A program made the translations under genes and the position numbers. 64,000 bases of DNA from Bacteroidota bacterium (GTDB taxonomy: Bacteria; Bacteroidota; Bacteroidia; Palsa-948). The notes beneath the pieces were generated by a model. It was not told where the DNA came from. It ran no database searches and saw nothing but the letters and a program-made list of their open reading frames with translations. The DNA lies in NCBI GenBank assembly GCA_003164895.1, contig PLUL01000014.1:100954-164953 (forward strand). Reading direction: 5' to 3'. Of this stretch, positions 7,985-55,232 are shown piece by piece; the first letter of the stretch is position 1, and every line of letters starts with the position of its first letter.

Positions 7985-9930
7985 AACTATCTGTCATTAT
8001 TGTCAACTACAACGTCGAGCATTTTCTCGAACAGTGTCTGCATTCTGTTCGCAAAGCAGTAAAAAATATTCCTGCAGAAGTTTTTGTAGTGGATAACAGC
8101 TCTGTAGATGGCTCGGTAGAAATGGTCAAGAATAAATTTCCTGAAGTTAAATTAATAGCGAATGAAAAGAATACAGGATTCTCAAGAGCAAACAATCAGG
8201 CGATCAAAGAAGCGAAAGGAGAATATATTTTACTCCTGAATCCTGATACTGTTGTTCAGGAAGATACGTTTGAGAAGACGATAAAATTTATGGACGAACA
8301 CAAAGATGCCGGGGCATTGGGCGTGATGATGCTAGACGGAAAAGGAAATTTCCTACCCGAATCAAAACGCGGACTCCCTACTCCATCGGTTGCATTTTAT
8401 AAAGTATTTGGACTCTCTGTATTATTTCCAAAATCAAAAACATTCGGAAAATATCACCTTGGCTTTCTCGATAAGAACAAAACTCACGAAGTAGATATTC
8501 TTGCCGGTGCTTTCATGTTGATTCGGAAATCGATTCTTGATAAAATTGGTTTACTTGATGAAACTTTCTTCATGTATGGAGAAGACATTGATTTATCTTA
8601 TAGAATTACACTTGCAGGATATAAAAATTATTATTTCCCGGAAACGCGAATCATTCATTACAAAGGAGAAAGCACGAAGAAGAGTTCCGTTAATTATGTT
8701 CTCGTCTTTTATAATGCCATGGCAATCTTCGCAAAAAAACATTTTGCCAAGAATCAGGCAAAGATGTTTTCTCTGTTAATTTATTTTGCAATTGCACTTC
8801 GTGCCGGAATTTCCATCTCAAAAAGATTTCTCAAACAGATTTTTGTTCCGCTTCTCGATGCATCCATTCTCTATGCCGGATTATATTTCATCAAAGATTA
8901 TTACGAACACAATGTAAAGTATGTTGCCTATCCTGAAAAACTGGTACTGCTTGCATTCGGGATTTACGTTTTCATTTGGCTGTTTTCCGTTTTTCTCAGC
9001 GGAGGTTATGACAAACCTATCCGGCTGCAAAAAATAGTTCGCGGAATTTTTTTGGGAACCGGAATCATTCTTGCTATTTACGCGCTGCTTCCCGAAGAAT
9101 ATCGTTTCTCGCGCGCTCTGATACTTATTGGAACCGGATGGGCAACGATTGCGATGCTTTCAACGAGAATGCTTTTTCATCTTTTCGGAATTAAAGAATT
9201 TCTTCTGGAAGGAAGCGCCTCAAAACGATTGGCGATTGTCGGAAGTGAAGAAGAGTTCAAAAGAGTGCTGGCACTTTTAAAAGAATCTTCCGTCAAAATT
9301 GGATTCACCGGATTTGTGAGCAGCGAAGGAAATAATTCTAATCCTTCAATTGATTTCTTAGGAAAATTTCATCAGCTTCAGGAAATCATCGAAATGTATA
9401 AAATTGATGAAGTAATTTTTTGTGCAAAGACTATTTCTTCCGAAAAAATTATTGATGCGATGAGTTTGCAGGGCAATGAAAATGTGGAATTTAAAATCGC
9501 TCCCCAGGAAAGTTTATCCATTATAGGAAGCAATTCCATTGACACGGCTGGCGACCTTTATACGCTTGATATAAACTCTGTAAATAAGCCATCAAACAGA
9601 AGAAAAAAGAGAATCATAGATATTTCTTTCTCAATAATTTTCATTGGGTTAATTCCTGTTTTAATTTTTGTGGCAAGAAATCCAATTTATTTTATTGGAA
9701 ACATATTTAAAGTATTGTTGGGATTTAATACCTGGGTTGGATTTAATATCAATCATCAACCTTCAGATATTAATCACCGAGCAGGTATTCTCTCACCTTC
9801 TGATTCATTGAAATCAAATAATATTACTCCTGAAGTAACCGAACGGCTGAATAAAATTTACGCGAAAGATTACAGCGTAAAAAATGATGTGAATATTATT
9901 TTAAAGGGGATTAGAAATCTTGGTCGTTAA
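7981..9930 (+). CDS. Family 2 glycosyltransferase fused to a WbaP-like membrane/CoA-binding-like C-terminal region, with no recognisable phosphotransferase catalytic domain
   Basis: N-terminal GT2 signature VIIVNYN...[10 protein letters not shown]...LLNPDT; multiple TM helices in the middle; C-terminal [12 protein letters not shown]...KIDEVIFC... resembles the non-catalytic part of polyprenyl glycosylphosphotransferases; start overlaps the recR stop (ATGA). Confidence 0.6.
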
Positions 9931-9951
9931 ACATCCTCTTTAGTAAAAACA

Positions 9952-11142
9952 TTACTTCAAAACCTTTTGCACCAGGTCAGCAGCTTCCTGCAATTGAATA
10001 GCAGAATGAACTTTCAACCCTGATTCATCAATGATCTTCTTTGCTTCAACGGCATTGGTGCCTTGCAAACGAACAATGATAGGAACATTGATAGTGCCCA
10101 TGTTTTTGTAAGCATCCACAATTCCCTGTGCAACACGGTCACAACGAACAATACCACCAAAAATATTTACGAGAATAGCTTTTACATTTGGGTCTTTTAA
10201 AATAATTCTGAACGCTTGTTCAACTCTGGCAGCATTAGCGGTTCCGCCCACATCTAAAAAGTTTGCTGGTTCTCCTCCTGAAAGTTTGATGATATCCATC
10301 GTTGCCATTGCAAGTCCGGCACCATTTACCATGCAGCCAACATTTCCATCCAACTTTACATAGTTAAGTTCATGCTCACCTGCTTCAACTTCCGTAGGAT
10401 CTTCCTCTAATTTATCGCGCATAGCAACGTAATCAGGATGACGATACAATGCATTGTCATCCAACGCAACTTTAGAATCCACCGCAACAATTTTATTATC
10501 GGAAGTTTTCAGCAGAGGATTAATTTCAAAAAGAGAAGCATCAATCGTTTCGTATGCTTTGTAAAGTGAAGCGATACACTTTGTCATATTCTTAAATGCT
10601 TCTCCGCTAAGTCCGAGATTGAATGCAATTTTACGACATTGAAAATCTCTCAAGCCAACTTTCGGATCAATTTCTTCTTTAAAAATTCTCTCAGGAGTTT
10701 TTGCTGCAACTTCTTCAATCTCCATTCCGCCTTCCTGTGAATAGATGATCATATTTCTTCCAAGCGCACGATTGAGCAGAACGCTCATGTAATATTCCTT
10801 AGTAGGAGTTTCACCGGGATAATAAACATCCTGAGCCACTAAAACCTTGTGAACTATTTTTCCATGCGGACCGGTTTGATGCGACACCAACTTCATTCCG
10901 ATCATTGCTTTTGCCTTTTCCTTTACATCATCCAACGTCTTCGCTAATTTCACACCGCCTGCTTTTCCTCTTCCTCCTGCATGAACTTGTGCTTTCACGA
11001 TCCATATCGGAGTGTTGGTTTGCTTTTGAAGTTCTTTTGCTGCATCAACCGCCTGATCTGCTGTCTCAGCTACAATTCCTTCTTGAATAGAAACACCGAA
11101 ACTTTTTAATATCTGTTTGCCTTGATATTCGTGGAGATTCAT
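9952..11142 (-). CDS. sucC: Succinyl-CoA synthetase (ADP-forming) beta subunit
   Basis: MNLHEYQGKQILKSFGV N-terminus (ATP-grasp) and C-terminal CoA-ligase domain; start taken at the internal ATG that gives the conserved N-terminus. Confidence 0.9.
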   Translation of the reverse strand: MNLHEYQGKQILKSFGVSIQEGIVAETADQAVDAAKELQKQTNTPIWIVKAQVHAGGRGKAGGVKLAKTLDDVKEKAKAMIGMKLVSHQTGPHGKIVHKVLVAQDVYYPGETPTKEYYMSVLLNRALGRNMIIYSQEGGMEIEEVAAKTPERIFKEEIDPKVGLRDFQCRKIAFNLGLSGEAFKNMTKCIASLYKAYETIDASLFEINPLLKTSDNKIVAVDSKVALDDNALYRHPDYVAMRDKLEEDPTEVEAGEHELNYVKLDGNVGCMVNGAGLAMATMDIIKLSGGEPANFLDVGGTANAARVEQAFRIILKDPNVKAILVNIFGGIVRCDRVAQGIVDAYKNMGTINVPIIVRLQGTNAVEAKKIIDESGLKVHSAIQLQEAADLVQKVLK

Positions 11143-11277: not shown

Positions 11278-11928
11278 ATGATTTTTGCAAACGATATACA
11301 CAAATCCTACCACTCGCTCGAAGTGCTGAAAGGCGTTTCGCTTGAGGTGAAGAAAGGAGAAATTGTTTCCATCGTTGGAGCATCCGGTGCAGGAAAAACA
11401 ACTTTGCTTCAGATTCTCGGAACGCTTGACAAAGCCGACAAAGGAGAAATAAAGATCAACGAAACGAATATTCAAACGCTCAGCGAAAAAAAACTTGCCG
11501 GATTCAGAAATAAACAAATAGGTTTTGTTTTTCAATTCCATCATTTGCTTCCCGAATTTACTGCAATTGAAAATGTGTGCCTTCCCGCTTTCATTGCAGG
11601 AAAAGGAAAGGTTGAGGCAGAGGTTAAGGCAAAGGAATTGTTGTCCTTTTTAGGATTAACAGACAGAGTCCATCACAAACCAAATGAACTTTCCGGTGGA
11701 GAACAACAAAGAGTTGCAGTTGCTCGTGCGCTGATAAATAATCCATCCGTAATTCTTGCCGATGAGCCATCAGGAAATTTGGATTCAGCTACAGCAAAAG
11801 AACTTCACAACTTATTTTTCACGCTCCGAGAAAAATTTCAGCAGACGTTCATCATCGTTACTCACAACGAAGAACTCGCCAATATGGCGGACAGAAAATT
11901 GGTGATGAAAGACGGACGAATGACTTAA
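11278..11928 (+). CDS. ABC transporter ATP-binding protein, LolD-like
   Basis: Walker [11 protein letters not shown]-loop, [15 protein letters not shown] signature, Walker [12 protein letters not shown]; 216 aa with FtsE/LolD-like architecture. Confidence 0.85.
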
Positions 11929-11946
11929 TTATTCATCAACCATTCA

Positions 11947-14004
11947 TTACCAGATTACCACCCTCAAGCTATCTGGCTGATACATTCCATCGCCTTGCTT
12001 CACATTAAATGTTTTATAAAACTCCGGAATGTTGCTTAGCGGACCATTCACACGAAATTGCGAGGGCGCGTGAACATTGGTCATTATCTGCCTTGCGAGA
12101 GATGCATTTTTAATATTTACCATCCACGCATACGCATACGCAAGAAAGTAACGCTGATCAGGAGTGAGTCCACTTATTAATTTATTTTCTTTGTACTGAG
12201 GAGTTTTTTTAAACGCTTCGTAACCCATCACCACACCGCCAAGATCGGCAATGTTTTCGCCTTGCGTTGCATCTCCGTTCACGTGCATGCTGTCGAGCAC
12301 AATGAATTTGCTGAACTGCTTCACAATTAATTTTGTCTTGGCAATAAATTTTTGTTTGTCCGATGGCGCCCACCATTTGTTCAGGTTTCCATTTTCATCA
12401 TACTGGCTTCCTTCATCGTCAAAGCCGTGAGTTATTTCGTGCCCGAAAGTGGAGCCGCCAATAATTCCATAGAGGATCGCATCATCGGGCATGCGTCCTT
12501 CAAAGCCGGGAACAATGATGTTGCAGGCAGGCACAACAATTTCGTTGTTGCCGGGATTGTAATATGCATTGTAAGTTTGCGGAGTCATTCCCCATTCTTT
12601 TCGGTCAACAGGTTTGCCATATTTATTTATGTTGTAATTGTAAAACCAATTGTTGGCGCGCATCACGTTCGAACAATATCCGCTGCGGTCAATGTTGAGT
12701 GCGCTCAGGTCTTTCCATTTATCAGGATAACCCACCTTCATCACGATGGCAGAAAGTTTGCTCAGCGCTTTTGTCTTGGTGGAATCACTCATCCAATCCA
12801 ATTTTTTTAGATGCTCTGCAAATACATCACGGATGTTGTTTCCTATCTCCAGCAATTTTTCTTTCGAACCCTTTGGCAAATATTCATCCACATACACCTG
12901 ACCAATTAATTCACCAAGAGAAGAATTATTGGTTTGCTCCACCACACGTTTCCATCGCGGCTTCTGTTCGGTAACTCCATTCATTATTGTAGAATAGAAT
13001 TTAAAATCCTGTTGTTCCAATTCTTTATTGAGATATGTTGCGTAGGAATTCACTGCGTTCCATTTTAAATAAGTTTTCCAGTTGTCAATGGAATATTTTT
13101 TCAGCAATGTATTCAGTGTTTCATAAAATTCGGGCTGACCAACCACCACCGAATCCGCATTTTTAATTCCCATCTCCGGCAGAATTTCATTCCATGCAAT
13201 GTTTGAAGTAAGTTTATTGAATTGAGTCAAGCTCATCTTGTTATAATTCTTTATCGGATCTCGAAGCGCTTCTAACTTGCGCGAGGATTTTGCAAGCTCC
13301 GTTTCCAATTTCATGATGGCTTCTGAATTCTTTCCGGCAAGAGATTCATCCTGACCAATGAGTTTCAGCATGGCAACAATGTGTTTCACATATTCCTTGC
13401 GAATGTTTTCAGTGCGCGCATCGGTGTTGAAATAATAATCACGCTGACCTAATCCCAAACCTCCCTGGTAAAATATCAATGCGTACTTTGAACTTATCTT
13501 GTCATCCTGACCTACATAAAAAATAAATGCAGGGTGAATTTGCAGCGTATATAAATGAGCCATGGTTGTCATCAGGGACTTAACATCTTTCACTTCATCA
13601 ATTTTATTCATCACATCATTCAGAGGAGCAATTCCATTCTTATCAATAGACGCCGTATCCATGCCCGAGGCAAAAAAATCACCAATCTTTTGTTTGTTGC
13701 TTCCTTTGGCGGCTTTGGTATCGCCCGATGCTGTTACGCACACGCGCCTCACCTGTTCGTTAATGGTATCGTCAATCAATTTAAAAATGCCGTTGCTGTT
13801 CTCCGATGCCGGAATTGCATTGCGCTTGAACCAGCCCCCATCGGCATAATGAAAAAAATCCACAGCGGGATTAACTGTGGTATCGCGGTTGGTTACCAAC
13901 GGATCGGGCAGAACTTGCTCGGTTGTTTTTTTACCGGCATTGTTGCAGGCAATGAATGCAAGCAAAAGAAATGATGCTGCGGCTAAACTGATTTTGAATT
14001 TCAT
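11947..14004 (-). CDS. pepO: M13 family zinc metallopeptidase (PepO/neprilysin-like), lipoprotein
   Basis: HEITHGFDDEG zinc-binding HExxH; GENIADLGG; NAYY; N-terminal lipoprotein signal LLLAFIACNN (the ORF may begin 9 codons upstream at 14031). Confidence 0.85.
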   Translation of the reverse strand: MKFKISLAAASFLLLAFIACNNAGKKTTEQVLPDPLVTNRDTTVNPAVDFFHYADGGWFKRNAIPASENSNGIFKLIDDTINEQVRRVCVTASGDTKAAKGSNKQKIGDFFASGMDTASIDKNGIAPLNDVMNKIDEVKDVKSLMTTMAHLYTLQIHPAFIFYVGQDDKISSKYALIFYQGGLGLGQRDYYFNTDARTENIRKEYVKHIVAMLKLIGQDESLAGKNSEAIMKLETELAKSSRKLEALRDPIKNYNKMSLTQFNKLTSNIAWNEILPEMGIKNADSVVVGQPEFYETLNTLLKKYSIDNWKTYLKWNAVNSYATYLNKELEQQDFKFYSTIMNGVTEQKPRWKRVVEQTNNSSLGELIGQVYVDEYLPKGSKEKLLEIGNNIRDVFAEHLKKLDWMSDSTKTKALSKLSAIVMKVGYPDKWKDLSALNIDRSGYCSNVMRANNWFYNYNINKYGKPVDRKEWGMTPQTYNAYYNPGNNEIVVPACNIIVPGFEGRMPDDAILYGIIGGSTFGHEITHGFDDEGSQYDENGNLNKWWAPSDKQKFIAKTKLIVKQFSKFIVLDSMHVNGDATQGENIADLGGVVMGYEAFKKTPQYKENKLISGLTPDQRYFLAYAYAWMVNIKNASLARQIMTNVHAPSQFRVNGPLSNIPEFYKTFNVKQGDGMYQPDSLRVVIW

Positions 14005-14259
14005 GATTATTGTATTAACTAATGGTTGCAAAACTAAATAAATTTGATTTGGGGAAGGGTTTTATTGGTGATTCTCTCGCACAAAGAAAGACCTTCGTTA
14101 GAAGACGAGGAAGTTTTACTTAAGTGCTATTCCACTCCACACTTCAATCCTAACCTTTTTTTATAATTAATCTCATAATATCTATTTAATTCCTTAAGCC
14201 GAGCTGTTTAGGATTATAAATCCTTATCCGCAAATTCAAAATCCAAGATTATTAAGAAA

Positions 14260-14967
14260 CTATTTTACAAATGAAAGTATTTGTTGCTTGAATTTATAAC
14301 CTAATGTATCGGTAGTGGTTCCAAAATATAAACTATCTCTCTCTTTATAAATAAGTCCAACGTTTCGAGCATATTTCTCAAATTCATTTTGATATTGAAT
14401 AAGATTTATGCTTTGAAACTGCGAAACTAATGCCACAGAATCAAAGGGCATCCCTCCTACTGCATCGTACTGATCCACCGATGTAATTTGATAAGTTTTA
14501 TTGCCAAGCGTATTATATACATTGCCGTTCCATTGCGTATTTAAGCGAGGCGGAAATATAAACCGGAGATAGGTAATGTTTTCTTCTTTTCTTTCGAGCG
14601 TGGTTTGCGTGCGTGTGGCTGACCACACTTTGGGAACACTCCATGCTGTATCCCATGTATGGGTAGTGAAATGAAACATTTTATAATATCGCTCCATTCG
14701 TAAAGTTGGTCTGCCGGAATTATCTAAAAAAGTTGCGGCAATTAATTCCTTTAGCTGATAACGGGTAGAATCAAATTGATTGGGATTGTTAGCATAAATA
14801 GAATCCACCTGGTAAATCACATAATGCCCCACATCATTGGGATAATAATTGTATCCGAAATTAACTGAAGCAGTAACAGGTTTATCTTTTTTACAGGAGA
14901 AGAAAAAGAAAATGAATATGGAAATAAAGAATATGGTATATGGAAATATTTTATTAAATATTCTCAT
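14260..14967 (-). CDS. Hypothetical lipoprotein
   Basis: Signal peptide plus lipobox FFFFSCKKD; no recognisable catalytic motif; start overlaps the mnmA stop. Confidence 0.5.
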   Translation of the reverse strand: MRIFNKIFPYTIFFISIFIFFFFSCKKDKPVTASVNFGYNYYPNDVGHYVIYQVDSIYANNPNQFDSTRYQLKELIAATFLDNSGRPTLRMERYYKMFHFTTHTWDTAWSVPKVWSATRTQTTLERKEENITYLRFIFPPRLNTQWNGNVYNTLGNKTYQITSVDQYDAVGGMPFDSVALVSQFQSINLIQYQNEFEKYARNVGLIYKERDSLYFGTTTDTLGYKFKQQILSFVK

Positions 14968-39857: not shown

Positions 39858-41216
39858 ATGATAAAAAAATTAATGAGCCGCGAAGAGATTTTCGAAAGCA
39901 TTGCGCTTGATTTCGAATACCTGATTCCTCGCGATATAGAAACCATTTTGCTGCTTCTCACACTTAATTCAAAAATTGAGAATCAGGAAATTGACGACAT
40001 CTTTTCTCAAAAAGATTTTGAAGATGCAGTGGATGATGTGATTGTTCATTTAAAACGCGACCGGAATATTCAGCGGGAAAGTATTTCCAAAAGATTAAGC
40101 CAGCATTTTTATACAACGCTTAAAGTCGGTGAAGAATATCGTTATCAGCTAACCATTTTTGCAAAGGAGTTTTCAAATCTTCTAATGAACGAAGTAACTC
40201 CTAACTATGAGAATCTCGAATTGATACACACATTCAAACGCACATTGCCTGTTCAAGATGACGATGTAACTAATATTGAAAAATTCAACTATTGGTACAA
40301 ACACCACTACAGCGCTTCCAAGAAATTTATTCTTTCGCATACAGATAATCTCCAGTTGTTCGTAGATAAAAAAGTTGCGGAACTAAGAACGCTGCTGAAA
40401 CCAAATACAGAAAATCCGAAAGAACTTATCGGACAATTTCTTGTCATTTTCGAACAGCTCGGAAAGCAAACTGAAGGAGTAACCCAGGCGCTTCACTTCA
40501 AACAAGATATCATTGACAAGATAAAGAACTCAGAACCTAATTTTAAAGATGTTCGTCAGTCCTGGGAACTTTACGACAAGATAAATAACGAAGTGATAAT
40601 CTTCTTTGAAACCATTGACAGTCGCGTATTGAACATCAACGATAAAATTCAACAGGCGCGCACGAGATTAAAATCTTTGTATGACAATTTGCGCTACAAA
40701 CAGCAATACAAACTCAAAGTTGAAAAATTCCTGTTGATGCTTTTGAAACACAGCAAAATTGTTGATGAAAAAATTGCATTGCCTCATAATGTTGAGAAAA
40801 AAGAAATTCCATATTTCAGAGACAAATTCGTTTACCCTCCTGTTATTGACTTTGGCGAATATCACAAAATAGAATCGCCATTCTATCAGGAAGATGAAGA
40901 GTTCAAAAGATTGAGCGAACTGGAAAAAATGAAACAACTTGCGCGCGCAGAAAATACAATCAAATGGATGAGCGACATCCGCAGCGAAATAGAACTTGGT
41001 CGTGAAGTTATTTTCGAACAATGGATGGATAAAATTCTTGATAAGGAGCAAAATCTGGAAGTACCGATAGATGTTTGCTTTAGCTTAATTGATGAATATA
41101 AAAACAGAGAAGATGTTCAATTAGATATTGAAAGAAAACTGATGACAACACTTCATTCAAATGTTGCTCTTTGGAAATTAAAAATCAAACCCAATCAAAC
41201 AGAACTTTCCGAATAA
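39858..41216 (+). CDS. Hypothetical 452-aa protein; candidate kleisin-like MksF/JetA-type subunit by position and size
   Basis: No catalytic motif; K/E-rich helical protein of MksF/JetA-like length sitting directly upstream of a 231-aa gene and the SMC-like gene. Confidence 0.4.
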   Translation: MIKKLMSREEIFESIALDFEYLIPRDIETILLLLTLNSKIENQEIDDIFSQKDFEDAVDDVIVHLKRDRNIQRESISKRLSQHFYTTLKVGEEYRYQLTIFAKEFSNLLMNEVTPNYENLELIHTFKRTLPVQDDDVTNIEKFNYWYKHHYSASKKFILSHTDNLQLFVDKKVAELRTLLKPNTENPKELIGQFLVIFEQLGKQTEGVTQALHFKQDIIDKIKNSEPNFKDVRQSWELYDKINNEVIIFFETIDSRVLNINDKIQQARTRLKSLYDNLRYKQQYKLKVEKFLLMLLKHSKIVDEKIALPHNVEKKEIPYFRDKFVYPPVIDFGEYHKIESPFYQEDEEFKRLSELEKMKQLARAENTIKWMSDIRSEIELGREVIFEQWMDKILDKEQNLEVPIDVCFSLIDEYKNREDVQLDIERKLMTTLHSNVALWKLKIKPNQTELSE

Positions 41217-41223
41217 ATAAAAT

Positions 41224-41919
41224 ATGGAGAACACCGACACACAACAAGCAATCAACTACGAGTACAATTACAGCTACGAATTTCTGAGCAGCGAACGTGC
41301 GCGCAAGCATTTTGCCGATACGGATTTTGCGCTGAGAAGCGGGAGACACATTCAGAACTTCGGAAACGATTTCAAGATGTGGGATTTCGTAAATGATTTT
41401 TACGAGAAGGGACTCGCAAAATATTACATGGAACTTTTGGGCATGGTGCTAAAAAAAGAATTCAATGAAAGAGAATCGTATTTCTTTTTGGATTTTCCTG
41501 AAGAAGGAAATAAAGGCAAATTCGGCTATGACAGAACCTATGCGCTGGACGACCGTCTCGTGATATTTGCAATCCTTTTGCTGAACCTTTACAAGGAGAA
41601 ATTCTTTGAGAACAAGGAAGTGAAATGGGACGAACTGCTTTACATCACCGAGGAAGGCGAGAACAAAGACCTCTGGCAAAAACTTCTTTTCGGGGAGAAC
41701 AAACGCAACTTTACACCTTCGGAAAAAGAAGAAGTACGCAGAAAAATTGAACGCACTTTGCAAACCTGCGAGCGCATGGGCTGGATTCGATGGATCAGCT
41801 ACGAAGATTTGCATTTTGAAATCATGCCCAGCATTGACCGCATTGCAAAACTTTATCAGACAGAAATAAATAACGTGGAACTGTTAACGGAATATTTGGA
41901 TAATAATTTACCATCATAA
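41224..41919 (+). CDS. Hypothetical 231-aa acidic protein; candidate MksE/JetB (MukE-like) subunit
   Basis: Size and position match MksE/JetB; acidic/aromatic composition; 8-nt spacing from the upstream gene. Confidence 0.4.
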   Translation: MENTDTQQAINYEYNYSYEFLSSERARKHFADTDFALRSGRHIQNFGNDFKMWDFVNDFYEKGLAKYYMELLGMVLKKEFNERESYFFLDFPEEGNKGKFGYDRTYALDDRLVIFAILLLNLYKEKFFENKEVKWDELLYITEEGENKDLWQKLLFGENKRNFTPSEKEEVRRKIERTLQTCERMGWIRWISYEDLHFEIMPSIDRIAKLYQTEINNVELLTEYLDNNLPS

Positions 41920-41973
41920 ACTGAAAAGAAAACATAAACCGAAAAAAGAATCTTGTAAATCGTATATATAATC

Positions 41974-44900
41974 ATGGCAAGCTATCCTAAAATCTACTCT
42001 CTCGACACCGTTGGTGTGAGACAACATTATAATTCTGAATATCTTTTTCACGCGGTGAGGACGGACTTCACTGGCGGAAACGGGCTTGGAAAATCCATCA
42101 TTGCCGATTTGATGCAATTGATAATTGTTCCGAGGCGCGATATGTGGAAACCAGGCACGGAAGGAATCGGCAAGGACGAAAGACGTGTGGAAGGAATTCC
42201 GTTGAACAAAGAATATATTCAATATGCGTATGCATTTCTGAACATTGAAAGAAAACAAGGACAGTTTTTAACGATTGGAGTTTACATTTCAAAGACTCCG
42301 CGCATTCCGGTGCGACCGTTCATCATTCAGGCTGGAAATAATTTTGAAGGCGGAAATCTCGTTCCGTTCAGCCGCCCGTTGCACCCTTCGGATTTCATGA
42401 ATGACAGCAAGACCATTTATGATCTGCGCGAACTTTCGAAGCACATGAAAGAAAAACACTCCTTATATATGAAGGATTTCTTTCAGACAGAAGGGATTAT
42501 GCAGTATTACGATCTGATGTACAAGAACAATATTCTTCCTGTAAATCTTACAAAACCTGAGAACTTAAAAACATATTCAAAGGTCATTCAGTCGTTTGCA
42601 AGAGCGAAATCTCTTGACATCACCAATTCGAAAAGTCTTCAGAATTTTTTATTCGAAGACAATGAAGAAATAAAAAGAACTTTTGAAGAACAGAAAGATC
42701 AGCTTCACAGTTTGATAAAACAGTACAGAGAAAATCATTTTCACACACAGGAACTTCAGCAGAAGCAGAAAAAACTTTTATCGCTTCTTGAAACCGAAAG
42801 AAAAAGCGTTGCCGCCAAAGAAGAGTTTTTAAAATCAAGCGCAACATTTTCTCATAAGCAACACAACAATGCGCTTGCTCGACACGAGAACAATACCAAG
42901 CACATTGAAACTTCCACTAAAAATCTTTTAAGACAGAAGAACGAACTTGAAAAAGTTACGGAAGAACTTTACATCTGCTACACCAATCTCCAGAAGGTTT
43001 GTTTGTTGATGCGAGAAAAATACGAAGTGCTTCTGAAAGATTTCAGCGATGAAACCATTCAAGCGCGCAAGTTATCTGCCGACCTTCTTCGCGATAAAAT
43101 AAATTTGATCGCAGGACTTTATCCGATAGTCGCGCAATACGAAAGCGTTGAAAAAATTCAGCACAAGTTGCATGAACAACAATCTTACAGAGGAAAGAAA
43201 AATAGTTTAAATAAAATTCTTTCGCTTTATTCTCTTGCAGATTTTGAACAATCACTTTGGGCGAAAGAAGATTTCCTTTCTGCTTCCCGACATTACAATG
43301 AAAAACTGAGCGAACTTCCTCAGCAGATAGAAGAACTTGAAACACTTGTTGCACTTTTTGAAGGAACACGAGATGATTCGTTTTTCCACTGGGCGATTCA
43401 AAATAATAAGCCGCTTACCAAAGAACAGGAAACTGTTCTGATGTATTTGAAAGAACTTCCGGTAACAAAACCTACAGATGTTGAAGAAGGAACACGCTAC
43501 ATTGCAAATCCATCTGCACTCCTTGGGAATTTTGAGAAAGATGAGAATGGCGGCATCTGGATAACATTCGGTGAAGTACGCGAATTCGTTCCGCTTATTA
43601 AAAAGCAACGCTTTACGAATACAAAAAATCTAAAAACGATCTTAGAAAAAGATACTAAGGCGATCAAGCTTTCACTGGAAGAAGCGCATCAGGAATTAAA
43701 AATGATACAGCGACTTTCTGATGAATTAACTGAGATTGGGTTCAATCAGGAACTTACCGACATCTGGGAAACTAAAGTTGAGATAGAGAATTACACAATC
43801 GACAATTCTTTGAACGAAGAAAAAATTGAACTCATCAAAGCAAACTGGGATGACATTCAAAAATTAGATGCGCTTCAGCTTGAATTCTCTACCATAGAAC
43901 ACGATGCAATTGAGATTGCCAAAAAACAAAGCGACATTAAGAACAAAATGAATTCAACCAAACAGGCGTACGGAACCTGTGAATATGAATTCACCAAACT
44001 GAGATTGGAAAGCAATATTGAAATTGAAATTCCGAATGAAGATTATTCTACGTTGGAATTGGATGCGCTGGATGTAATAAAAAATGGTTTCGAATCGAAA
44101 ATTAAAACCTGCAACGAGCAAAAAAACTGGAGCGAGAAATACATGATCGCTGCAGAAGGAGAATTGCGCGGTTACAGAAGCAGCGAACCAATCCTCAAAC
44201 AGCAAATGGAAGAATCGCTGGTTGTCTTCAACGAGAAGAAACAACTGCTGGAATCTGAAACCGGAATTGTATTTGAACCAACATTAATTACAGGTGAACT
44301 CAACGAAAATATTATTGAACGATTGGAAAGAAAGAGCGAAGAACTTTTAGAAGCATATCACGAAGAGTTTACACGCGTTACAGAAGCATTTGAAGAAACG
44401 AGAGGCGATAAAAATCCTGAACTCATCACCGATAAATTTAATTTCCGCACATTAGTAAATATTCTCTGCGGAAAATTGGGATTAGAAGGATTAGGTCCAG
44501 AATTGGAACGACTGAACGAAGAGTTGAAAAAATTCGGAGACCTTCAGCTTACAATTATAATAGATGTTTTCAAAAAAGTGGAAGTGCAGTACAACGCTTT
44601 CAGAAAACTAATCACCGAACTGAACTTCTTCTTCAAGGAAAACCGAATCAGCGGAGTATATAATTTTCAGGTGGACTTTAACGACCGCAGAGATATTTCT
44701 GTGGATTGGATTCGCAGAATGCGCGAACATGCAAAGTACCAGCGTTTGTCTGCAAAACTTTTCATCACTGCAGAAAATGAAGTTTCTCCCGAGCATCTCA
44801 TCCTCAATATTGCAAAAACACTCAGCGATGTAGGCGACTGTGAAATTGGTGATCTGCTCGATCCGAAATTTTATTTCGACCTGCGCGTAGGATTGTTTGA

Positions 44901-45588
44901 CGAGCAAGGCAACCGTTATCCCGGTTCGGGCGGTGAAGCGTACACAGCGCTCGCGCTTCTCTGCATCGGCAGAATGTCGGTCATTCAGCGCGACAAGAAC
45001 CGTACGGGAGTTCGCTTCATCATCATTGAAGAGTTATCGAACATTGACGACACCAACTTTGGTTTGTTCCCCGAGATTGCAAAAATGTTCGGCTACCAGC
45101 TGCTCACGATGACACCAAAACCTTTTGGTTCGTACAGCGAAAGCGAATGGTACCTGCACATGCTCATCCGCGGAAAAGACAAGAATATTAATTACCAGCC
45201 GATGAGTTTCTTCCGTACAAAAATGAGCAAGCAGCGACTGGAAGAATACATGGGCGATGGAAAAATAATTTCGAAAGTGGTGGAAGAAGCAGAAGTTAAG
45301 GAAGAAACGCCAACTATTACCGAGACCGGACATAACCTTGTTCTGGCAAATGTAATTGAAGGATTTATTGACCACGTTACAAACGAAATTGAAATTCCAA
45401 TTATTGCTGATGAAATTTTAAACTTAACTGAAGAATCTCCTGTTAATGAAGATGTAATTAAGGATGAAATTCCTGAACCTCCACAAATTAGCAGCGAACT
45501 TCAGGAAGAACGCAAACAGGAATTTTTAGGATTGAGCGAGGAAGAAAAAACGGAAGAGAAGAAAGATGAGAATAAAGGAGAAGAATAA
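41974..45588 (+). CDS. SMC-like ATPase of MukB/MksB/JetC type (1204 aa)
   Basis: N-terminal Walker A DFTGGNGLGKSIIADLMQLIIVP (compare MukB [23 protein letters not shown]); Q-loop QGQFLT; roughly 700-aa K/E/Q-rich coiled-coil middle; C-terminal signature PGSGGEAYTALALL, Walker B VRFIIIEEL and D-loop SNIDD; acidic disordered tail. Confidence 0.65.
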   Translation: MASYPKIYSLDTVGVRQHYNSEYLFHAVRTDFTGGNGLGKSIIADLMQLIIVPRRDMWKPGTEGIGKDERRVEGIPLNKEYIQYAYAFLNIERKQGQFLTIGVYISKTPRIPVRPFIIQAGNNFEGGNLVPFSRPLHPSDFMNDSKTIYDLRELSKHMKEKHSLYMKDFFQTEGIMQYYDLMYKNNILPVNLTKPENLKTYSKVIQSFARAKSLDITNSKSLQNFLFEDNEEIKRTFEEQKDQLHSLIKQYRENHFHTQELQQKQKKLLSLLETERKSVAAKEEFLKSSATFSHKQHNNALARHENNTKHIETSTKNLLRQKNELEKVTEELYICYTNLQKVCLLMREKYEVLLKDFSDETIQARKLSADLLRDKINLIAGLYPIVAQYESVEKIQHKLHEQQSYRGKKNSLNKILSLYSLADFEQSLWAKEDFLSASRHYNEKLSELPQQIEELETLVALFEGTRDDSFFHWAIQNNKPLTKEQETVLMYLKELPVTKPTDVEEGTRYIANPSALLGNFEKDENGGIWITFGEVREFVPLIKKQRFTNTKNLKTILEKDTKAIKLSLEEAHQELKMIQRLSDELTEIGFNQELTDIWETKVEIENYTIDNSLNEEKIELIKANWDDIQKLDALQLEFSTIEHDAIEIAKKQSDIKNKMNSTKQAYGTCEYEFTKLRLESNIEIEIPNEDYSTLELDALDVIKNGFESKIKTCNEQKNWSEKYMIAAEGELRGYRSSEPILKQQMEESLVVFNEKKQLLESETGIVFEPTLITGELNENIIERLERKSEELLEAYHEEFTRVTEAFEETRGDKNPELITDKFNFRTLVNILCGKLGLEGLGPELERLNEELKKFGDLQLTIIIDVFKKVEVQYNAFRKLITELNFFFKENRISGVYNFQVDFNDRRDISVDWIRRMREHAKYQRLSAKLFITAENEVSPEHLILNIAKTLSDVGDCEIGDLLDPKFYFDLRVGLFDEQGNRYPGSGGEAYTALALLCIGRMSVIQRDKNRTGVRFIIIEELSNIDDTNFGLFPEIAKMFGYQLLTMTPKPFGSYSESEWYLHMLIRGKDKNINYQPMSFFRTKMSKQRLEEYMGDGKIISKVVEEAEVKEETPTITETGHNLVLANVIEGFIDHVTNEIEIPIIADEILNLTEESPVNEDVIKDEIPEPPQISSELQEERKQEFLGLSEEEKTEEKKDENKGEE

Positions 45589-45616
45589 TGCATTAAAGGA
45601 TTAACAATTTCAAAAT

Positions 45617-46030
45617 ATGGAAGTGCGCATTGGAAATAATAGCGAGTATTTGCTATTGAGAAATATAACATTAGAAAGTCTTCAAAATTATTTTTATAAT
45701 ACAACAATTGAAATTCATTTGAATGGTTTTTCTTCAAACATTAAAGCATTTGGGGAAATTAATGAATTGACAGGATTAATTCTCAACCTCAAAAAGCTAT
45801 ATCAAAAACTTGATTTTCAATTTACATTTGGGAATCTGGAAGATAACATAGGAATAACAGTCCAGACAAATCCGACAAATGCAGGACAAATTGAATTGAA
45901 AGGGTTTCTCAAGAATAGCTATGGCACAGGGAAACTTGAATTTAAAATAGTAACAGACCAATCTTATTTGCCTGAAACAATAAACCAATTAGAGATTGTA
46001 TTATCCGATTTAAAAATTAACACGAAATAA
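45617..46030 (+). CDS. Hypothetical 137-aa protein immediately downstream of the SMC-like gene
   Basis: Starts 29 nt after the SMC-like stop; very AT-rich; no recognisable motif. Confidence 0.4.
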   Translation: MEVRIGNNSEYLLLRNITLESLQNYFYNTTIEIHLNGFSSNIKAFGEINELTGLILNLKKLYQKLDFQFTFGNLEDNIGITVQTNPTNAGQIELKGFLKNSYGTGKLEFKIVTDQSYLPETINQLEIVLSDLKINTK

Positions 46031-46044
46031 GATATTCCTGAATC

Positions 46045-52565: not shown

Positions 52566-55232
52566 ATGTCCTCCATATATAAATATCGTGCTGCCAAAAA
52601 CGGAAGTAAAAACGGAGATTTCGAAACTCCGTTGATGCAGCAGTATGCCAGCATCAAATCAAAATATCCTGATGCGATTCTTCTTTTTCGAATTGGAGAC
52701 TTCTATGAAACTTTTGGAGAGGATGCGATTAAAACTGCTGCCACTCTTGGTATCACGCTCACTAAAAGAAGAAATGGCGCAGCATCTGAAGTGGAGCTTG
52801 CAGGATTTCCATATCATGCACTTGATACATATCTACCAAAACTTGTTCGCGGAGGACACCGCGTTGCTATTTGCGACCAATTGGAAGACCCAAAGTTCGC
52901 CAAAAAAATTGTTAAGCGAGGAATAACAGAACTCGTAACGCCCGGAGTATCTTACAACGACAAAACACTTGATCACAAAGCAAATAATTTCCTTGCATCC
53001 ATTCATTTTGATAATAAGAATGCAGGAATTTCTTTCTTGGATGTTTCTACCGGAGAATTCATTGTGGCACAAGGAACCATAGATTACGCTGAAAAACTTT
53101 TGCAGAATTTCAAGCCGAGTGAAATACTTTTCCAAAAAAATAAAAAGAAACAGTTTGCAGAATTTTTTGGGGAGAAATTTTATACCTATGGTTTGGATGA
53201 ATGGGTTTTCAGCGAAGATTTCTCTAATGAAACTTTACTAAAACATTTCGGCACAGCTTCGCTCAAAGGATTTGGTATAGAAAATATGAATCTTGGCATT
53301 GTTGCCGCAGGCGCCGCACTTCATTATCTTGCCGCCACCCAGCATGACCGCGTTCAGCACATTCAATCCATTTCACGTATTGAAGAAGATCATTACGTGT
53401 GGTTAGATAAATTCACCGTGCGTAACCTCGAACTTTTCTGGTCGCCAAACGAACGGGCAAAAACGCTGATTGATATTCTTGACAATACAATTTCGCCAAT
53501 GGGATCACGCATGATGAAGCGCTGGCTCTCCATGCCTCTAAAAGAAAAACAGCCTATTGAAGAACGCCTGAACAGTGTTGAACTTCTTTTGAAACAGCCT
53601 GAACTTTCTGAAAAAATTGCCAATCAGATACAACTCATAGGAGATCTGGAAAGATTGATATCCAAAGTTGCAACAGGAAGAATTTCTCCCCGCGAAGTGG
53701 CACATCTCAAAAGAGGTCTTGCAGCAATTGAGCAAGTAAAACTATTGTGCGAATCATCTTCAACAATTGAAGATGGGAAAGGAAGTTCATCATTAAAAAA
53801 AATAGCTGAACAGTTAAATCCTTGTCTTCTTATTCGTGAAAGAATAGAAAAAGAAATTGTTCCCGAGCCGCCGCCCATGCTGAACAAAGGAAAAGTTATA
53901 GGCGATGGGGTGAACGCTGAATTGGATGAATTGAGAAAGATAATGTCGTCTGGAAAAAATTATTTATTAGAAATACAACAGCGTGAAAGTGAACGAACTA
54001 AGATAGGTTCTTTAAAGGTTAATTTTAATAATGTTTTTGGATATTATTTGGAAGTAACAAACTCGCACAAAAGCAAAGTTCCTTCCGATTGGATTCGTAA
54101 ACAAACTCTTTCCAATTGCGAACGCTATATCACCGAGGAATTAAAACAGTACGAAGAAAAGATACTGGGCGCGGAAGAAAAGATACTCGCACTGGAAACA
54201 CAGTTGTTCAACGATCTTGTTCTTTCCCTTGCAGATTACATCCCTCCTATTCAGCTCAACGCTTCTCTTATAGCACGATTGGATTGTCTGCTTTCATTCA
54301 CCCGAACAGCACACAAAAATAATTATGTGCGCCCGCATATCAACGACAGCAAAGTCATTGACATAAAATCAGGGCGTCATCCTGTCATCGAAACACAATT
54401 AGCGGTGGGCAATGAATACATTGCCAATGATATTTATCTTGACAACGAGCAGCAACAGATCATTATTATCACTGGTCCGAATATGTCCGGTAAATCTGCA
54501 TTGCTGAGGCAGACCGCACTCATCGTCATCATGGCGCAAATGGGAAGTTTTGTTCCGGCACAAAACGCCGACATTGGCATCGTGGATAAAATATTTACTC
54601 GTGTGGGAGCTTCGGATAATCTTTCTCTCGGAGAATCCACCTTCATGGTGGAGATGAACGAAACAGCAAGCATCCTAAATAATCTTTCGGAACGAAGTTT
54701 AATTCTGCTGGATGAAATCGGAAGAGGCACCAGCACGTATGATGGCATTTCCATCGCTTGGGCAATTGCGGAATTCTTACACAACCATCCAACGAAACCA
54801 AAAACACTTTTTGCCACGCACTACCACGAACTGAATGAAATGGAAAAGACAATGCCAAGAATTAAGAACTTCAATGTATCGGTGAAAGAAGTTGGCAACA
54901 AGGTGATCTTCATGCGGAAATTAGTGCCAGGTGGAAGCGAACACAGCTTTGGAATTCATGTGGCAAAGATGGCGGGAGTTCCTAAAAAAGTAGTGGACAG
55001 GGCAAATGAGATACTTGAAAAACTGGAATCAAGAGATGAAAGGATAGACGAAAATTCAAAATCAAAAATTTCAAATTCCAAAGCGGATGATATTCAACTT
55101 AGTTTTTTTCAACTTAATGATCCAGTGCTTGAACAAATCAGAGATGAAATTCAGCAAACTGACATCAACACATTAACGCCTGTTGAAGCACTGATGAAAT
55201 TGAACGAGATCAAGAAACTTATCGGTGGCTAA
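52566..55232 (+). CDS. mutS: DNA mismatch repair protein MutS
   Basis: N-terminal [35 protein letters not shown]; Walker [14 protein letters not shown]; STFMVEMNE; [12 protein letters not shown]; 888 aa. Confidence 0.9.

Follow-up and report, generated by a model that had tools for sequence, protein, structure and literature searches.

According to proposals in reviews, MukBEF, the MksBEF complex of Pseudomonas and similar complexes that fold chromosomes descend from Wadjet systems, which cut plasmids, and came about when the nuclease was lost. To our knowledge, the direction and the consequences of this switch are unstudied in a lineage that keeps both states. The locus described here is an mksFEB-like operon, encoding a complex of the structural maintenance of chromosomes (SMC) type, on a 64,000-nucleotide (nt) stretch of a Bacteroidota genome of the Palsa-948 lineage (assembly GCA_003164895.1, contig PLUL01000014.1, positions 100,954 to 164,953), and this whole stretch is called the window below. 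The operon comprises three co-directional open reading frames (ORFs) on the forward strand, of 452, 231 and 1204 amino acids (aa), separated by gaps of 7 and 54 nt: an mksF-like kleisin gene (39858..41216), an mksE-like gene for a KITE subunit (41224..41919), and an mksB-like gene for an SMC ATPase (41974..45588). These sizes and coordinates match exactly the tightly spaced trio of an original prediction, made from the sequence alone, which had read it as a kleisin-MksE-MksB module with no Toprim nuclease partner. Our findings upheld this module identity for all three subunits, and we hold both the subunit identities and the evolutionary history of the locus set out below to be very probable.

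Pseudomonas aeruginosa MksBEF was proposed as a JetD-loss derivative of a four-gene ancestor (PMC10586767). Bürmann et al. 2025 plotted the loss of MksG/JetD across the Wadjet group in their Fig. S1A, and their Data S1 holds many operons annotated as “FEB” (PMC7617805); nuclease loss is therefore an established phenomenon, and its repeated occurrence has already been published (Bürmann 2025; Liu 2023). In the part of Data S1 covered here, Bacteroidota operons appeared as “FEBG”, with examples from Flavobacterium macacae (RQVR01000010.1), Sphingobacterium siyangense and a Bacteroidales bacterium (DNSQ01000001.1), the first of which is the same as locus L059 in our comparison. Six contigs and three protein accession prefixes from the nuclease-less clade to which the window belongs were not found in that part, and the clade appears to be uncatalogued there. 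What is specific here is a well-resolved pair of sister groups within one phylum, of which the nuclease-bearing one is mobile and the nuclease-less one, on our reading, domesticated.

Like the operon in the window, P. aeruginosa MksBEF is a chromosomal F-E-B trio without MksG/JetD, derived by nuclease loss. The two differ in that the loss here would be an independent one in a Bacteroidota-specific lineage, that the window proteins are too divergent to be recognized by the PADLOC JetA and JetC models or by any kleisin sequence model, and that the SMC subunit in the window's clade ends in an acidic tail with a conserved motif. A role on the chromosome was demonstrated in P. aeruginosa, whereas here we infer one.

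Identity of the SMC, KITE and kleisin subunits

The 1204-aa protein (B) contained the motifs quoted in the original prediction of a MukB/MksB-type SMC. These were a Walker A motif, FTGGNGLGKS, followed by QLIIVP (residues 32-53), a GSGGE signature at about residue 985, a Walker B motif, RFIIIEE, with EE in place of the usual DE, and a D-loop, LSNID; the residues of these four motifs did not vary in an alignment of 24 homologues with 29-80% identity. The protein was laid out approximately as an N-terminal head (1-240), an arm, a hinge (about 469-550), a second arm, a C-terminal head (about 827-1095) and the acidic tail (1096-1204). It passed the cut-off of Pfam MukB_N (PF04310; 28.9 bits against 23), and as a single sequence it had one match in the PDB, the MukB head 3euj (E=2.6e-4). 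The family profile of B matched MukB 7nyw (E=6e-13), with no JetC, Smc, Rad50, SbcC or RecN chain significant, and the family hidden Markov model (HMM) scored 49.7 bits on E. coli MukB. MukB alone was matched by the family profile in the PDB.

A Rad50/SbcC or RecN identity was considered and rejected, as no SbcC, AAA_23 or SMC_N family was matched in Pfam or NCBIfam and the partner genes encode a kleisin and a KITE subunit. Public records name the homologues either “hypothetical protein” or “exonuclease SbcC”; the second label, carried by some B homologues, was unsupported by the Pfam, NCBIfam and PDB profile results. In two nuclease-bearing relatives (L042:10001-13311 and L049:2388-5734), the SMC gene was split into two ORFs, reflecting either pseudogenisation by a frameshift or stop codon, or sequencing error.

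The acidic tail of B (45259..45585, forward strand) was clade-specific. It was found solely in the window's closest clade (the window and loci L004, L006, L007, L008 and L010), where it spans about 70-190 aa, and the other clades of the family lack it. The tail is rich in Ser, Thr and Glu and varies in both length and sequence, while its terminus forms a conserved short motif, EERKQEFLG, of which E-R-K-Q-E-F-L was kept across the closest clade.

The 231-aa protein (E) passed the Pfam MksE threshold (PF21980; 55.2 bits against a cut-off of 27), which bore out the MksE/JetB-type identity first proposed for it. It fell slightly below the threshold of Pfam MukE (23.5 bits) and matched PADLOC JetB (JetB1) weakly (E=1e-3), and the family HMM built for E scored 41 bits on E. 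coli MukE. The 452-aa protein (F) had no sequence match in Pfam, NCBIfam or PADLOC, nor in a profile search of the PDB, and its layout was resolved solely by structure prediction. The AlphaFold model, built with 37 homologues in the alignment, had a predicted local distance difference test score (pLDDT) of 73.5 and placed a winged helix at the N-terminus, three long helices at 140-298, a disordered linker at 305-346 and a second winged helix at 347-445. When this model was compared with the PDB by Foldseek, the top 13 matches were MukF chains (E 4e-8 to 3.5e-4), followed by JetA (2e-3). By its predicted fold, F is a kleisin of the MukF/MksF/JetA type; the winged-helix ends anticipated for it were present, and MukF gave the best-matching folds. 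The Pfam MksE match, the matches of B to MukB_N and to MukB by profile, and the kleisin fold of F together identified the module as kleisin-KITE-SMC.

Among solved complexes, E. coli MukBEF was the best match for all three subunits, and it likewise occupies a nuclease-free chromosomal housekeeping locus. A MukBEF-like sequence signal in all three subunits, read for the kleisin from its predicted fold, was unexpected. The likeness did not extend to the strict level of an equivalog, as E scored 20.6 bits against a cut-off of 250 on the NCBIfam MukE equivalog and NCBIfam gave no MukB match for B and no MukF match for F. B is also 1204 aa long against 1486 aa in MukB, and its arms are therefore much shorter, and the phylum differs.

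Wadjet types I and II (JetABCD/MksBEFG/EptABCD) have the same architecture, and the relatives of the window operon share the Toprim nuclease fold with them. However, none of the PADLOC models (types I-III) for JetA, JetC or JetD matched the window proteins, the JetB match being the weak one given above, and no JetC was reached in the PDB by the B family profile; the nuclease gene is absent from the window. The PADLOC Jet models missed the nuclease-bearing relatives likewise, and the family HMMs had no match on a Bacillus type II operon or on an Acinetobacter B-E-F-G operon. By both sequence and fold, MukFEB is a nearer counterpart of the window proteins than JetABC is, which corrects the earlier description of the module as MksFEB/JetABC-like. 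With an SMC, a KITE subunit and a kleisin encoded by adjacent, co-directional genes in the order F-E-B, the operon belongs to the Wadjet-group/MukBEF-like (Mks) complexes in the broad sense. It lies outside Wadjet in the strict sense (JetABCD/MksBEFG), having no operon-linked Toprim nuclease and no JetA or JetC model match.

Nuclease-bearing relatives and loss of the fourth gene

A scan of one genome per species yielded 73 related loci, nearly all from Bacteroidota: Chitinophagales, Saprospiraceae, Cytophagales, Flavobacterium, Chryseobacterium, Pedobacter, Sphingobacterium, Bacteroidales and Dysgonomonas. Four loci carried other labels (L025, Altiarchaeales; L044, Trueperaceae; L047, Nautiliaceae; L064, Comamonas) and are probably mis-binned contigs, the family being otherwise confined to Bacteroidota. 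The F-E-B order, which the original prediction had taken as typical of kleisin-MksE-MksB modules, was kept in about 70 loci and was present in every locus complete enough to judge.

A fourth gene, encoding 280-320 aa, followed B either directly or a few genes downstream in 49 of the 73 loci, 46 of them recognized by ORF clustering and three (L019, L065 and L067) by tblastn. Its products share invariant Toprim-like motifs (C-E-N, E-L-W-x-x-G-G and D-W-D-x-x-G). Of 44 members, 13 matched Pfam JetD_C (best E=2.7e-5), no other Pfam family being reached, and UniRef names some members “Wadjet protein JetD C-terminal domain-containing protein”. Against PDB sequences, a profile of this family reached MksG only at a non-significant level (E=1.3), while Foldseek of an AlphaFold model (pLDDT 88) against the PDB returned Corynebacterium MksG 8b7f (E=2e-5), Pseudomonas JetD 7til (E=4.5e-4) and then topoisomerase VI-A. 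On the strength of the JetD_C matches and the fold search, the fourth gene was considered MksG/JetD-like, and the wider family therefore a four-gene system of the Wadjet group.

The Bacteroidota F-E-B-G operons resemble the window operon in gene order, in gene sizes and in overlapping start and stop codons, and their B proteins are 28-51% identical to that of the window. They differ from the window's clade in carrying the short MksG/JetD-like gene after B and in often lying beside integrases, OLD-type nucleases or DUF932 genes, with signs of transfer between orders. A gene for a tyrosine integrase, an OLD/GajA-like ATPase-Toprim protein, a DUF932 protein, a single-stranded DNA-binding protein (SSB) or a DUF1281 protein lay within 10 kb in 16 of the 49 nuclease-bearing loci, compared with none of the 25 other loci. 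Synonymous divergence (dS) between nuclease-bearing operons of different orders was low, at 0.3-0.6 between Dysgonomonas and Sphingobacterium and 0.2-0.27 between Lentimicrobiaceae and Parabacteroides (comparisons L048 with L072 and L053 with L058), which indicated recent horizontal transfer of these operons. The neighbours of many nuclease-bearing loci (integrase, DUF932, SSB and OLD/GajA-like genes) are typical of integrative elements and defence islands. A tblastn search of B against 72,556 plasmids gave no match. In two Saprospiraceae loci (L034:4261-10000 and L037:6219-10000), 4-6 kb of unrelated genes, including those for an M57 metallopeptidase, a di-haem oxidoreductase and a glyoxalase-like protein, separated mksE from mksB; as the nuclease gene was still found downstream, these were regarded as split operons.

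When 64 full-length B proteins were placed in a neighbour-joining tree, the nuclease-less loci, L061 excepted, all fell in a single clade nested within the nuclease-bearing subfamily. The clade comprises the window, L004, L006-L008, L010-L018, L020, L022, L036 and L038, and its sister is L019, in which the nuclease gene is retained. This nesting of a single clade points to one ancestral loss of the nuclease, long ago, in the ancestor of the window's clade. One of the readings first offered, a Wadjet-like module whose effector had been lost, was thereby borne out, as the relatives have an MksG/JetD-like gene after B and the nuclease-less loci form one nested clade.

The family nuclease HMM, run on all six frames of the 64-kb window, found nothing better than E=0.28, and tblastn found no trace of the family nuclease in the window. 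The same HMM and tblastn searches detected no remnant in the 10-kb flanks of the other loci of the nuclease-less clade. PADLOC, applied to the 48 other window ORFs, gave no JetD among the 25 listed of its 30 matched families. Family HMM, tblastn and PADLOC thus agreed with the earlier statement that no Toprim nuclease is encoded in the 64 kb. The PADLOC matches among the other window ORFs did include ATPase-Toprim_I-B, AriA, PtuA and HEC-01A/02A. The ATPase-type matches probably stem from a 216-aa ABC-type ATPase at 11278-11928, the sole other small Walker-A protein in the window, and a hidden Toprim nuclease behind the ATPase-Toprim, AriA and PtuA matches was set aside as the less likely source. 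A PADLOC match to MzaA (E=7e-50) probably came from a genuine mutS gene at 52566-55232.

The position held by the nuclease gene in relatives corresponds in the window to 45589..46044 (forward strand), which by Pfam and locus comparison holds an unrelated WapI-like ORF (45617-46030). This 137-aa ORF had been described as an orphan preceding a leucine-rich repeat (LRR) gene; both genes are present, but the ORF is not fully an orphan, as it matches the Pfam WapI-like immunity protein family PF24716 at 52 bits. No toxin gene was evident next to it. If either the WapI-like or the LRR protein had assumed the place of the nuclease, to serve as effector or as sensor, the position of both genes in the vacated slot would be explained, as would the recurrence of the LRR gene 3' of the operon in four closely related loci. 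However, the WapI-like ORF was confined to the window organism among the loci compared, L006 and L010 pass from B straight into the next housekeeping genes, and elsewhere the slot is filled by a peptidyl-prolyl isomerase (PPIase) or outer membrane protein (OMP) barrel gene in close relatives and by an MFS transporter or PhoD phosphatase gene further out. The LRR protein, if it is a lipoprotein as the original prediction described it, would lie beyond the cytoplasm. No conserved fourth gene substituted for the nuclease in any nuclease-less locus compared. The replacement of the effector, which the original prediction had allowed for, found no support, as the slot is occupied by different genes in different loci, with products that are unrelated or secreted, and we give it a very slim chance. 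In the closest relative, L008, a gene for a small SdpI/YfhL-family membrane protein lies between mksE and mksB (9587-9982) and a PPIase gene lies 3' of mksB (13879-14271); the surroundings of the operon seem to take up small, unrelated genes with ease.

Conservation and context of the retained genes

Over the SMC gene, the window is 100% identical to a 397-kb scaffold from a metagenome-assembled genome of Bacteroidota. The operon in the window is set among housekeeping genes. On its 5' side lie genes for a sigma-70 factor and an HtrA-type protease together with dapF, and on the 3' side follow the 137-aa ORF, the LRR gene, a GNAT acetyltransferase gene, mltG/YceG and mutS. A scan for sigma-70 promoters and terminators performed no better than on shuffled sequence, the sigma-70 models being ill-suited to Bacteroidota. 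Within the window's subclade, the synteny dapF-FEB-...-GNAT-mltG was kept. In part of the next nuclease-less subclade, the context was also stable, with cdaA, methyltransferase, OmpA/TolB-like and tetratricopeptide repeat genes.

When the window proteins were compared with those of six close relatives, identity was 72-93% for F, 85-97% for E and 59-83% for B, with 54-82% for dapF, 79-84% for htrA and 66-68% for mltG. From these ranges, the trio evolves at or below the rate of the adjoining core genes, and its divergence tracks theirs. The ratio of nonsynonymous to synonymous divergence (dN/dS) between the window and L008 was 0.041 for F, 0.025 for E and 0.074 for B. Deeper pairs had reached saturation at synonymous sites, with dN still at 0.03-0.2. 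All three reading frames were intact in about 18 divergent genomes. The trio is under strong purifying selection after the loss of the nuclease.

These observations bear directly on whether the operon could be a decaying remnant of a Wadjet-like system, useless since it lost its nuclease. Such decay would be in keeping with the missing effector gene and with a kleisin stop codon in one assembly of the same organism (L003). It would not be in keeping with intact frames across about 18 divergent genomes, dN/dS of 0.03-0.07, invariant catalytic motifs, or amino-acid identity equal to or above that of the flanking housekeeping genes; decay is strongly disfavoured, and we consider it highly improbable. 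The stop codon itself affects kleisin codon 258 (window position 40630; L003:6650), where TTA (Leu258) is replaced by TAA. L003 (12,886 bp) is a second metagenome assembly of the window organism, with 3 single-nucleotide polymorphisms relative to the window in 12.9 kb, and its stop codon may reflect either an error of assembly or a naturally occurring null allele.

Proposed function of the nuclease-less complex

We propose that the locus encodes a complete and active MksBEF-type SMC complex, in which the kleisin F would bridge the heads of a B dimer and carry a dimer of E. Its ancestor would have been a four-gene F-E-B-G system of the Wadjet group, widespread and mobile in Bacteroidota, from which the MksG/JetD Toprim nuclease gene was probably lost once, in the ancestor of the window's clade. 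The remaining three-gene motor would then have passed down by vertical descent, strongly constrained and set among housekeeping genes. By analogy with what is established for MukBEF, MksBEF and JetABC, its product may dimerise via the kleisin, entrap DNA and extrude loops with ATP; loop extrusion is inferred from those systems, and cleavage would not follow, as DNA captured by a complex without MksG/JetD would stay uncut. The substrate would probably be the chromosome, as proposed for P. aeruginosa MksBEF and for MukBEF, and the likeliest present role would be in its organisation or segregation, as demonstrated for P. aeruginosa MksBEF. Taken as a whole, this explanation, a domesticated and active MksBEF-type complex working probably on the chromosome, is the one we favour, with moderate confidence; for a chromosomal function in itself, by analogy with these systems, we would put the chances at about even. 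The original prediction had set an auxiliary condensin and a Wadjet-like module with a lost effector side by side as two possibilities. These fit together as successive stages, with a defence-type ancestor, the loss of its nuclease and then a constrained motor.

The complex might instead continue to act in anti-plasmid defence. It would do so either together with an unlinked nuclease of the same genome or by compacting, silencing or sequestering small circular DNA in the manner proposed for Smc5/6, which would restrict it without cleavage. The ATPase motifs of B are intact, the nearest relatives are four-gene nuclease systems that often lie near mobile-element or defence genes, the search for a nuclease covered 64 kb of the window genome, and a natural kleisin null allele, if that is what L003 carries, would fit a non-essential accessory system. 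Conflict systems, however, have been described as sporadically distributed and fast diverging (PMC10586767), and the conservation and synteny of the trio, which is syntenic and at least as well conserved as the adjoining core genes, is the opposite pattern and counts against a role in defence. In addition, no conserved fourth gene takes the place of the nuclease in the nuclease-less loci, and markers of mobile elements or of defence are missing from the 10 kb around them. Continued anti-plasmid defence is therefore regarded as unlikely, though it retains an appreciable share of our expectation, and the chromosome would be a likelier substrate than plasmids.

Four points weigh against the domesticated, chromosomal complex that we favour. 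The tree on which the single loss is based was midpoint-rooted and carries no support values. The two nuclease-less subclades have the operon among different neighbours, which means that it has been moved or rearranged at least once. The search for the nuclease extended over the 64 kb of the window genome and the 10-kb flanks of its relatives, which leaves room for an unlinked nuclease. If the kleisin stop codon in L003 is real, the system would be dispensable under some conditions.

A further and more tentative step would be that the complex became a genuine chromosome-organising condensin of this uncultured Bacteroidota group, independently repeating the transition from Wadjet to MukBEF that has been proposed, and that the acidic tail with its EERKQEFL motif is a newly acquired docking or autoregulatory element. 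We regard this as possible but doubtful.

The two sister groups provide a clean comparative pair for the domestication of an SMC defence motor, in which selection, genomic context, the added tail and interaction partners can be compared. They also bring to light a Bacteroidota SMC complex that has been overlooked by standard defence-system detectors and by most annotation pipelines. The original prediction took the phylum to rely normally on SMC-ScpAB. The authors of a Hi-C study of two gut Bacteroidota reported that they detected no homologue of a known condensin, and inferred unidentified SMC complexes there (PMC10197239). If the condensin reading is true and the complex proves widespread, it could explain some of the “unidentified SMC complexes” suggested by these Bacteroidota Hi-C maps.

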